DNA of 64,000 nucleotides, taken from positions 1,600,001 through 1,664,000 of the forward strand of contig OZ257156.1 in the NCBI GenBank assembly GCA_965279375.1, given 5' to 3'. A program made the position numbers and the translations under genes. The stretch comes from Gemmatimonas sp. GTDB lineage: Bacteria; Gemmatimonadota; Gemmatimonadetes; Gemmatimonadales; Gemmatimonadaceae. Below the pieces are notes generated by a model. The model saw only the letters and a list, made by a program, of their open reading frames with translations. It did no database searches and was not told the origin of the DNA. This document shows, one piece after another, positions 5,045 through 45,791 of this stretch; the stretch's first letter is position 1; each line of letters starts with the position of its first letter.

Positions 5045-5148
5045 GAACACACGGTACGCCCTCGCGTCACCGCGCCGTCATCGCCCTGCAACCGAAAGCT
5101 ATTGTCGGGGCGCGCCGAGTCTACACGAGACCATGTCCCGCGCCGCCG

Positions 5149-29718: not shown

Positions 29719-29913
29719 GCCCACTAACTCGGGGTGGTGCGGGAACGTCACATCGCGGCTGCGGGTGACGACGGGGAGGGACGGATCGACTCGCTCGACG
29801 GCACGTGCACTCGTAACTTCGCGCGCATCGATCCACAGGGAAGCGGGTGACGGATGTTCTCCCTCATGCCCGCGCGTGACTGCTACCCCGAGCCCCCCGC
29901 CAGGATGCCCTCA

Positions 29914-30914: not shown

Positions 30915-31262
30915 TCAGGCGCGCTTGTAGTCCACCAGAAAGTGCATGACACCGGCGGGCGAGGAGAATTCCGTCGGTGTCGCCTGTCCGGACAGATCGT
31001 AGCAGATGCGCAGCGTGTCGCCGTCGAGCGCAAAAATGGCGGGGAAAGTCTTGCCTGCGTTCGGCCCTTCAACGCCGGTCACCGACATGGACATGGGCGA
31101 CGTGCTCGCGTCGATCGACACCGTGCCCTTGTCGATCGTTGGCCCGACCGTGACGACGTACTCGCCGCCGGTGACGGTGAGTTGCATTGCCTGGAGCACT
31201 GGTGGCGGAAACGGTTGACCGGCCATGAGAGCCGTGGTGGGGACCCAGGTACCATCGATCAT
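30915..31262 (-). CDS. TIGR03067-domain protein
   Basis: IDGTW...GPNAGKTFPAIFALDGDTLRICY...PTEF; GGAG SD before ATG 31262. Confidence 0.8.
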   Translation of the reverse strand: MIDGTWVPTTALMAGQPFPPPVLQAMQLTVTGGEYVVTVGPTIDKGTVSIDASTSPMSMSVTGVEGPNAGKTFPAIFALDGDTLRICYDLSGQATPTEFSSPAGVMHFLVDYKRA

Positions 31263-31427: not shown

Positions 31428-31471
31428 AAAAAAGCGACCCCGGTGCCAGCTCTTGCGAGCTAACACCGGGG
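31428..31471 (-). terminator. Intrinsic terminator
   Basis: CCCCGGUGUUAGCUC-GCAA-GAGCUGGCACCGGGG followed by UCGC-UUUUUU. Confidence 0.85.
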
Positions 31472-31547
31472 ATCCGTCTCCCGGTAAGGAGAAGCTGTGC
31501 TATTTCACTGCAACTGCGCGCTTCGCTCGAAAAACAGTTCCTTCTGC
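31428..31547 (-). ncRNA. Candidate sigma54-dependent small RNA, ~120 nt, three hairpins
   Basis: Bounded by a -24/-12 promoter and a strong intrinsic terminator; contains no credible ORF. Confidence 0.6.
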
Positions 31548-31557
31548 GAATGCGCGT

Positions 31558-31573
31558 TGCAAGCACAATGCCA
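31558..31573 (-). promoter_or_regulatory. Sigma54 (-24/-12) promoter
   Basis: Minus strand TGGCATTGTGCTTGCA, with exact GG-N10-GC spacing and one mismatch to TGGCAC-N5-TTGCW. Confidence 0.7.
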
Positions 31574-31751
31574 CGAAGTCATTTCGGGACGACCCGTAAC
31601 TGTTGAGAAATTCTTGCCGTCTTCGATCACACAAAAGGCGAGTTTTTGTCTGCACTCACGACGCATACACACGCTTATGGAAGAGCCCGCTGTGTCCATA
31701 CCCGTGCGTCCATGCATACAAACTGTTGCGCGACTGAAACAGTTTGCGCAT

Positions 31752-32396
31752 TCATCGTGCGCGTGATGCAAGTACTCGACGAACATCGTCCAACGATCCA
31801 CCGACGGCGCGCAATGCGACGAGCGCGTGATAGATGAGGTCGGCAACCTCCTCGCTCGCGCGCGGCAGGTCTCCGTCGGTGCACGCCACAGCAAGCTCGA
31901 CCGCTTCCTCACCCAACTTCTTGAGTCGCAGGTTACGGTCGCCCAACAGCTTGCGTGTATAGCTCGGTCTCGAGCTCTGAAGTGAGCTGTCGTTTGCTTC
32001 AAGGATCAGCTCGGCGGAGCGCGCTGCAATCGTCGCATCCAAAAGCCCAAGCTGGTCCGCGGACAAGGCGTCGTCGCGGAAGCACGACGTGGTCCCGTTG
32101 TGGCACGCTGGACCCGCCGGGCGCACCCGCGCCAACACCGCGTCGGCATCGCAGTCGGCAGTCAGCGACACCACATGCTGCACGTTGCCGCTGGTCGCGC
32201 CCTTGTGCCACAGCCCTCGCGTGCGCGACGTGTAGTGCATTTCACCGGTCGCCATCGTGCGATCGAGCGCGTCGCGGTTGGCGTGCGCCACCATCAACAC
32301 GGCGCCGGTCATCGCATCCTGCGCGACCACAGTGACGAGCCCGCCACCCTTGGCAAAGTCGAGTTCGTCGAGGTTGAGCATCACGTCCGCAGTCAT
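31752..32396 (-). CDS. hisIE: Bifunctional phosphoribosyl-AMP cyclohydrolase / phosphoribosyl-ATP pyrophosphatase
   Basis: SRTRGLWHKGATSGN, DCDAD, ACH...SCF, KKLGEEAVE and EVADLIYH. Confidence 0.95.
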   Translation of the reverse strand: MTADVMLNLDELDFAKGGGLVTVVAQDAMTGAVLMVAHANRDALDRTMATGEMHYTSRTRGLWHKGATSGNVQHVVSLTADCDADAVLARVRPAGPACHNGTTSCFRDDALSADQLGLLDATIAARSAELILEANDSSLQSSRPSYTRKLLGDRNLRLKKLGEEAVELAVACTDGDLPRASEEVADLIYHALVALRAVGGSLDDVRRVLASRAR

Positions 32397-39303: not shown

Positions 39304-39332
39304 AAAAAAGGCCCGTCCGGAGGGGACGGGCC
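39304..39332 (-). terminator. his attenuator terminator
   Basis: GGCCCGUCC-CCUCC-GGACGGGCC-UUUUUU between the leader ORF and hisG. Confidence 0.9.
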
Positions 39333-39372
39333 GAAGCAGGCTTAGAACGGTCGGGTCAGCGATCGACGCTGG

Positions 39373-39456
39373 TCACCCACACACGCGCACAGCGCCTCGA
39401 CCCGTCGGGCCGTGACCGTGATGCGCATGATGGTGGCGGAGAGCGTTGGTGATCAT
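39373..39456 (-). CDS. hisL: his operon leader peptide, 27 aa (MITNALRHHHAHHGHGPTGRGAVRVCG)
   Basis: 6 His codons in 8 positions, directly upstream of the terminator and hisG. Confidence 0.85.
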   Translation of the reverse strand: MITNALRHHHAHHGHGPTGRGAVRVCG

Positions 39457-45305: not shown

Positions 45306-45791
45306 ATGGCTGATTCTTCTGGTTCCGATCGTTCGGGCGCCGACGAGCGCTCCGACGCCGCCGTCGAGAGCGGCATGTCCGAGGCGGCGACTCCCGTACT
45401 CGTGCCCAAGAAGTCCTTCGCCCGACGCAACTGGGGCAAACTCACGCTGGCGACCCTGTTCGGGCTTCCCGCGGCGACGCTGGCCATCTGGACCGCCGTT
45501 GCCATGACCTACACCTACTCCGATGGCGAGCGGGCCGGCTACGTGCAGAAGATGTCCCGCAAGGGATGGGTCTGCAAAACGTGGGAAGGCACGCTCTACA
45601 CCGACATCGCCAAGGGCTTTCGCTCGGACAGCTTCAACTTCACCGTGCGCAGCGACTCCATTGCGCACCTGGTCGACAGCCTCAGTGGCAAGCGAGTTGC
45701 AGTACGGTATGAGCAGCACGTCGGACTCCCCACCTCCTGTCTCGGGGATACGGAATATTTCGTGTCCGGGGTACGTGCCATTCCTGAATAG
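45306..45791 (+). CDS. Conserved single-TM hypothetical protein
   Basis: [24 protein letters not shown]...GDTEYFV. Confidence 0.75.

Follow-up and report, generated by a model that had tools for sequence, protein, structure and literature searches.

A conserved small-RNA-like gene of Gemmatimonadales, missing from Rfam, with a candidate promoter, activator and target

Relation to described RNAs and promoters

The described RNAs closest to the element reported here are the csRNAs of streptococci, which belong to the CiaR regulon. In the part of PMC3091779 used for this comparison, they share with it a direct repeat of 11-bp period above the -10 element and a terminator, as well as a variable size and location and a conserved unpaired stretch between hairpins. 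However, the csRNA repeat is TTTAAG-N5-TTTAAG, whereas TGACR-N6-TGACR is found here. Moreover, the conserved motif is purine-rich here rather than an unpaired anti-SD or anti-AUG sequence, the CUCCU being paired, and the gene is mostly present in a single copy. The element would work like the csRNA-type regulated sRNAs, yet it is a member of no family tested.

A similar promoter layout is described for targets of SARP regulators, where 11-bp repeats are found and the 3' repeat is 8 bp from a weak -10 (about 8 bp above it at SARP/AfsR promoters such as that of afsS), the hexamer given for the afsS-type promoter in the portion of the source considered being CACTGT (PMC10936776). The corresponding hexamers of the sRNA family are CATTGT, CACGAT and CATTCT. 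PhoB boxes, in the part of PMC1906773 concerned, sit 10 bp above the -10. An 11-bp repeat ending 8-10 bp above the -10 is found in the family and is broken in the host genome. The likeness to SARP/AfsR systems would extend to a candidate regulator having OmpR-like, BTAD-like, ATPase and TPR parts. It is, however, a likeness of layout, and here a non-coding RNA would be driven, outside Actinomycetota.

Pxr of myxobacteria (RF01812) is likewise a clade-restricted three-hairpin sRNA of similar size, as far as the parts of PMC5684412 and PMC5568312 considered here describe it. One member of the present family (in genome G573) scores 26.1 against the 80-bit cut-off of RF01812, mostly via the terminator and with the first stem-loop unmatched, and no RF01812 match was found for the host-genome copy. 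Unlike in Pxr, sigma54 and an adjacent activator are not traits of this family. Guanidine-IV (Gd4v) riboswitches also consist of a hairpin followed by a terminator; in the parts of PMC7736828 and PMC9788692 concerned, conserved bases lie in the terminator loop and the riboswitch sits before genes, whereas here the terminator has a variable top and is often followed by a convergent gene. As for 6S RNA, no RF00013 match was found in the host genome (G000), where the copy of the element is multi-hairpin, some secA-linked copies elsewhere being long hairpins. A structured 160-nt gap after zapA (L077:1225-1390, minus strand), with a sigma70-like promoter and no Rfam match, was noted separately; from its synteny, we take it to be a possible divergent 6S RNA. 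In decoy RNAs of the CsrB/RsmZ type, a motif is shared between the sRNA and an mRNA leader region, and such a common motif is also found here. By contrast with these decoys, only one to three units are present, and GGA is neither required nor enriched (108 against 113.7 in shuffled sequences).

The element downstream of hisIE

The window, that is the whole stretch of 64,000 nucleotides that was analysed, contains a gap flanked by two minus-strand genes, hisIE (31752-32396) and a TIGR03067 gene (30915-31262); gene calls in G000 come from a codon-model gene finder. As the initial annotation had noted, the gap is AT-richer (57% GC against 65% genome-wide), and the motifs listed there are all in place: the sigma54-like -24/-12 match TGGCATTGTGCTTGCA (31558-31573, minus strand), a 15-bp GCAA-capped hairpin (31438-31471) with U6 (31428-31433), and two upstream inverted repeats. 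This hairpin is the one terminator-like site of the gap (mean of 0.5 in shuffles), and none of 200 shuffles folds as well as the segment 31420-31550 (z -3.5). The predicted small RNA would be about 120-130 nt long (31428..31558, minus strand), its 5' end lying near 31547 according to the sigma54 model or near 31558 according to the family -10 model. Rfam 15 gave no match at the gathering cut-off in the 64-kb window (best value in the gap, E 0.54), and ten family loci compared with Rfam gave rRNA matches only; the scan that had been proposed thus points to no Rfam family.

In related genomes, BLAST gave partial matches in 3 of 60 relatives, two of them syntenic, and the core is present at 6 of the 29 other hisIE loci examined. 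Exact-pattern scans returned eight genome and three metagenome stretches, nine of which are of Gemmatimonadales type and follow hisIE, the other two being chance matches in coding sequence; two archaeal-like and two viral pattern matches, located inside coding frames, were rejected. With a covariance model, full-length copies were found in 13 of 87 Gemmatimonas genomes, all after hisIE, plus two weak partial matches. These 13 copies and one from a metagenome contig make up the 14 distinct hisIE-linked copies discussed below, which have a mean column identity of 56%.

Invariant in all 14 are GAGCGAAG.G, CUC, ACCGGGAGACG and the CCC/GGG base of a stem. A box of two RAGCG units, GAGCG(A/G)AG(C/U)G (31519..31528, minus strand), lies mostly in a loop or linker and had not been singled out earlier. 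In the form GAGCGAAGYG, it is identical in 13 of the 14 copies, a C being changed to U in the last. Its mean unpaired probability is 0.47, against 0.35 for the whole RNA, and is the higher value in 30 of 41 cases. Among 57 related copies, 36 have the A form, devoid of an internal GGA, in a tally where the variants are partly fixed by the search patterns used. An E-R-S reading frame through the box was considered and dropped, and pairing of the box with the tail did not exceed shuffles in 14 of 14 copies.

Downstream of the box, the hairpin P3 (CUCCU-UACC-GGGAG, 31478..31491, minus strand) is restricted to the hisIE-linked clade. It corresponds to the second hairpin of the initial annotation and is indeed predicted to form, with a probability of about 1. 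This holds CUCCU in the stem (unpaired probability 0.00-0.18), so that the anti-SD-like sequence of the initial annotation is not exposed. Four P3 pairs are kept in 13 of 13 alignment rows, with C-G replaced by U.G in four, and the changes are one-sided only. P4 (31428..31471, minus strand), the GC-rich 3' hairpin with its U tract, is a probable intrinsic terminator: six pairs show two-sided changes, 94.6% of cells are paired in an alignment that was fitted to the model, and the 10 nt that follow contain 2-7 U in the 14 copies. The covariation score of 0.339 (0.182 when shuffled, reached by 0 of 500 shuffles) is overstated, since the alignment was fitted to the model and the sequences are related. 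Covariation is seen for the 3' hairpin. The first hairpin of the initial annotation would have a probability of about 0.5 if transcription starts at 31547 and of 0 if it starts at 31558. Like the GUGAAAUAGCACAGC stretch and both upstream inverted repeats, it occurs in 1 of 14 copies, that of the host genome. Enhancer repeats are accordingly unsupported as a trait of the family. ACAAAA-N7-TTTTGT (31631..31649) may be an enhancer site if sigma54 control was gained in the host genome. The other inverted repeat (31719-31746) lengthens via G.U pairs into a hairpin of non-conserved sequence immediately past the hisIE stop (31713-31750, minus strand), which is probably the mRNA 3' hairpin of the his transcript.

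The gene following the element varies. It is a convergent TPR gene in six hisIE-linked copies, a TIGR03067 gene in the host genome only, and elsewhere an ECF sigma gene, which carries its own promoter, or an unknown ORF. The element is therefore not the leader of one particular gene; with a convergent TPR gene in 6 of the 13 other copies, the attenuating leader of the TIGR03067 gene proposed as an alternative is refuted. Just before the ECF sigma gene, TGTGAC-N16-(G/A)GTT (29725-29752 of the window, minus strand) is kept in most of 30 loci and is a probable autoregulatory ECF promoter. The ECF factor was rejected as the sigma factor of the RNA, its promoter being different and the element being absent near 22 orthologues elsewhere.

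Beyond the genus, the covariance model matched 1 of 150 family genomes. In view of this weak match in another genus, a pattern combining the promoter repeat and the box was used. Within the genus, it matches 35 of 87 genomes, against 2 for the reversed control; in the family, the figure is 50 of 301 (reversed control, 9 to about 11, counted by eye). A stricter version matches 5 of 151 genomes of the phylum, three of which are among the 72 of a second family (control, 0). Fifty of the 57 rows of the family-wide listing and two further loci were inspected, and three loci that we take to be REP-like repeats were dropped. The copies lie after secA, after or opposite rRNA genes, opposite gyrA, or before convergent peptidase, dehydrogenase or mscL genes, and the scaffold is either a hairpin-box-terminator of 70-90 nt or a long hairpin with the box in its loop. 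No second copy after secA was found in G000, and there is usually one copy per genome. Two other order-wide patterns were set aside: a core pattern allowing one mismatch (84 of 401 genomes), whose matches we take to be largely fortuitous since the covariance model later matched 1 of 150 family genomes, and a flanked box pattern (19 of 401), at control level and with members only in genus g45.

Judged by its sequences, the element is a conserved small-RNA-like gene of a Gemmatimonadales family missing from Rfam. With its covarying 3' hairpin and the position of all 13 full-length genus copies after hisIE, it bears out the idea of an unannotated structured RNA gene, and it is very probably transcribed as a stand-alone RNA. 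A full-text literature search returned no description of the element, which large motif-discovery supplements could list, and no regulatory RNA described for Gemmatimonadota.

A candidate target and the decoy alternative

G000 has a single further 13-mer complement of the core, at G000:C1:4753420-4753443 (minus strand); 0.04 would be expected in intergenic DNA. The site matches the P3 segment (31474..31497, minus strand) over 22 of 24 nt, with 13 bp unbroken, and ranks first for non-self duplexes among 53,894 windows of intergenic DNA. With every one of the 14 P3 segments, it forms a predicted duplex of -31 to -42 kcal. Some 100 nt downstream of the site is a 23-codon ORF that has a strong SD and is followed by a MASE9/HD-domain gene whose product bears the GYP motif. 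HD-GYP proteins have a c-di-GMP phosphodiesterase role. In a sample of two plus two genomes, the 15-nt site is exact in both genomes with P3 (G000 and G017) and altered in both without it (G063 and G070); the G025 contig begins just past the site. The region, the small ORF and 3-4 box-like GAGCGG repeats are kept in all four. The opening costs are high (11.4 and 12.4 kcal). It should be noted that non-P3 RNAs reach -36.6 and -30.9 kcal through GC-rich pairings with other parts of their own gap, so that energy alone does not discriminate. The unannotated ORF itself (G000:C1:4753250-4753318, minus strand; L320) is conserved in 5 of the 5 genomes seen and ends in K-x-W-G; its product is a possible signal or regulatory peptide.

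The full reading that we favor, and to which we give an even chance, is that of a trans-acting Gemmatimonadales sRNA having a SARP/OmpR-type activation, a P3 target near the HD-GYP gene and a protein-binding box. An activator of this type, together with the housekeeping sigma factor, would drive the RNA. Within the clade linked to hisIE, pairing would begin at the UACC loop of P3, after which 13-24 bp would form in the region about 100 nt above the small ORF and the gene of a membrane, c-di-GMP phosphodiesterase-like HD-GYP protein. Pairing would alter the structure or stability of the target rather than cover a ribosome site. The box would be a protein-binding motif shared with the 3-4 copies in the HD-GYP region, and the RNA may thereby affect c-di-GMP turnover in trans.

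A quite unlikely alternative is that the RNA is a protein decoy only, following the logic of CsrB or CrcZ: the box would titrate an RNA-binding protein that reads the GAGCGG repeats, and the P3 match would be the relic of a copied stretch. The box is indeed the only order-wide motif, the repeats of the target region are kept in 4 of 4 genomes, and the 57 related copies contain an excess of GAGCG outside the box (23 against 13.5 in shuffles, reached in 2 of 200) and of RAGYG (45 against 31.9, 1 of 200). However, a relic would drift, yet two distant P3 genomes have both the core and the site in exact form. The leaders of G000, moreover, show no sense-strand enrichment of box-like 9-mers (19 against 26). 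Given the absence of GGA enrichment and the A-form boxes, CsrA, of which one gene is present in G000, fits poorly; no Hfq was found in this genome.

An order-wide circuit is conceivable, though unlikely as a whole, in which an AfsR-like STAND activator would turn on an sRNA that mimics the repeats of the neighboring small-peptide/MASE9-HD-GYP leader region and acts as a decoy for an RNA-binding protein, without Hfq. One Gemmatimonas clade would have acquired, in addition, a hairpin antisense to this region, and a 14-nt deletion would have switched the promoter class of the host genome to sigma54. For Gemmatimonadota, which are common in soil and fresh water, the family offers a predictable promoter along with candidates for the activator and for a target tied to c-di-GMP turnover. 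If these assignments are true, SARP-type activation would extend to a non-coding RNA outside Actinomycetota, and the family would be a case of an sRNA whose 10-nt box persists while its location, scaffold, target module and possibly sigma class change.

Promoter, candidate activators and the less likely explanations

Upstream of the RNA, TGAC(G/A)-N6-TGAC(G/A) is intact in 13 of the 14 hisIE-linked copies. An xAxxxT hexamer stands 9 nt below it in 8 of these 13 and is absent at 8-9 nt in five divergent copies. Among the non-REP pattern matches, it is found 8-9 nt below the repeat in 27 of the 37 located within 130 nt and in 2 of the 12 located farther (background, 5.7%); the form CATTGT also occurs in G035 and G573. 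The layout of the family promoter is thus an 11-bp direct repeat, 8-9 nt and a -10 hexamer, that of a SARP/OmpR-activated sigma70 promoter. Clear enrichment in intergenic DNA of G000 is seen for the strict repeat only (13 of 33 against 3-10); the looser form gives 15 of 45, against 17 of 60 at spacing 9. Separately, a perfect TGACG-N6-TGACG with TACCGT 8 nt below (5065-5080 of the window, minus strand) lies upstream of a Uma2 gene, and two further Uma2-like genes of G000 carry the repeat or a variant.

Two activators can be considered. The first, an AfsR-like STAND regulator to which we would assign odds neither better nor worse than even, is a protein of 1124 aa with ATPase and TPR parts and no PDB match; it has a weak OmpR-type (Trans_reg_C) score and a homologue has a BTAD score, both below Pfam cut-offs. 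A perfect repeat stands upstream of its gene in 4 of 4 genomes; for comparison, a repeat with at most one mismatch is upstream of 173 of 4311 genes. Two repeat-plus-box matches in other genera sit upstream of AfsR-like homologues, and the AfsR-like and MASE9/HD-GYP genes are adjacent and convergent. The second, a PhoB-like regulator, is a rather unlikely candidate: in 4 of 4 Gemmatimonas, variants of the repeat are located at corresponding places in the pho cluster, one short contig of G255 having none, and the counts of these variants (3-5) are near those of control spacings (0-7).

The initial annotation had proposed an sRNA driven by sigma54 and enhancers, whose CUCCUU would block ribosome sites. 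In its favor, the -24/-12 match is canonical, rpoN is present, as are ten strong matches to sigma54 activators, and the direct repeat is broken in the host genome, where an apparent 14-nt deletion has reduced it to ATGACT (31577..31582, minus strand), leaving CATTGT (31565..31570, minus strand) and creating the sigma54-like match around it. This match is at that position in the host genome only; three other copies have a distal canonical site and four a near match in which the first G, at -25, is changed. However, the site is absent in 10 of 14 hisIE-linked copies and in 43 of 43 other candidates, which speaks against sigma54 control as a family trait. The form with T at -25 is not enriched in G000 intergenic DNA (6 of 54). 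Moreover, in addition to the stem-locked CUCCU, CUCC is not enriched family-wide, and target prediction at start regions gave no outstanding target; for the box, neither start regions nor rRNA and tmRNA stood out (13 against 7.3 expected). As a general explanation, the proposal is improbable. Sigma54 use in the host genome alone keeps somewhat less than an even chance, since the ancestral repeat is broken there. With that repeat broken, transcription in the host genome would come from a gained sigma54 site, the bare -10, or his read-through. TGGCA-N6-TTGCW has nine sites in the genome and is not enriched genome-wide; the looser YGGCAY-N6-TGCW is intergenic in 29 of 121 cases, against 8-21 at five other spacings, so that about one in two of these intergenic matches may be genuine. 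A second sigma54-like match was noted at 45686-45701 of the window (plus strand). In Gemmatimonas devoid of the element, a canonical sigma54 site is often found right after hisIE (L016, L018, L023, L025, L028-L030, L032), preceding a small membrane-protein or lipoprotein gene.

Equally improbable is that the box and the core are DNA operator sites, present both here and upstream of the HD-GYP gene, and that the hairpin is a mere terminator. The same motifs do occur at both loci, and GCG(A/G)AGC, which as DNA forms a stable mini-hairpin, is also present in repeats of the attC-like and REP-like kinds. Nevertheless, many copies lack a same-strand gene downstream, the distance from box to promoter varies from 40 to 204 nt, and the changes in P3, P4 and the secA-linked hairpin are of the G.U type. 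Finally, a cis element (attenuator or riboswitch of the following gene, element of the his 3' UTR, or small ORF) has a very slim chance: a same-strand gene follows in secA-linked copies and in G098, G077, G017 and G071, and an SD-like GGGAG precedes an RTG in nine copies, but the neighbor is convergent in 6 of 14 hisIE copies and in most other genera, a separate promoter serves the ECF gene, and the small ORF starting at the RTG in P4 was rejected, the RTG being lost in five copies and stops and a frameshift occurring in others. The hisG leader was also rejected as a target, its match of -21 kcal in the host being unconserved in the other 29 leaders.

Some observations concern other loci. At G000:C1:1255600-1391800, six attC-like repeats, which bear the complement of the box at the apex, suggest a chromosomal integron array. 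In G034, G097 and G087 (L091-L093), a common intergenic motif and a terminator hairpin follow a lipoprotein-like gene and are unrelated to the sRNA family. A his attenuator lies before hisG (39310-39456 of the window, minus strand), comprising a His-rich leader peptide (39373-39456) and a terminator (39310-39332); a similar peptide is found in 28 of the 30 loci examined.
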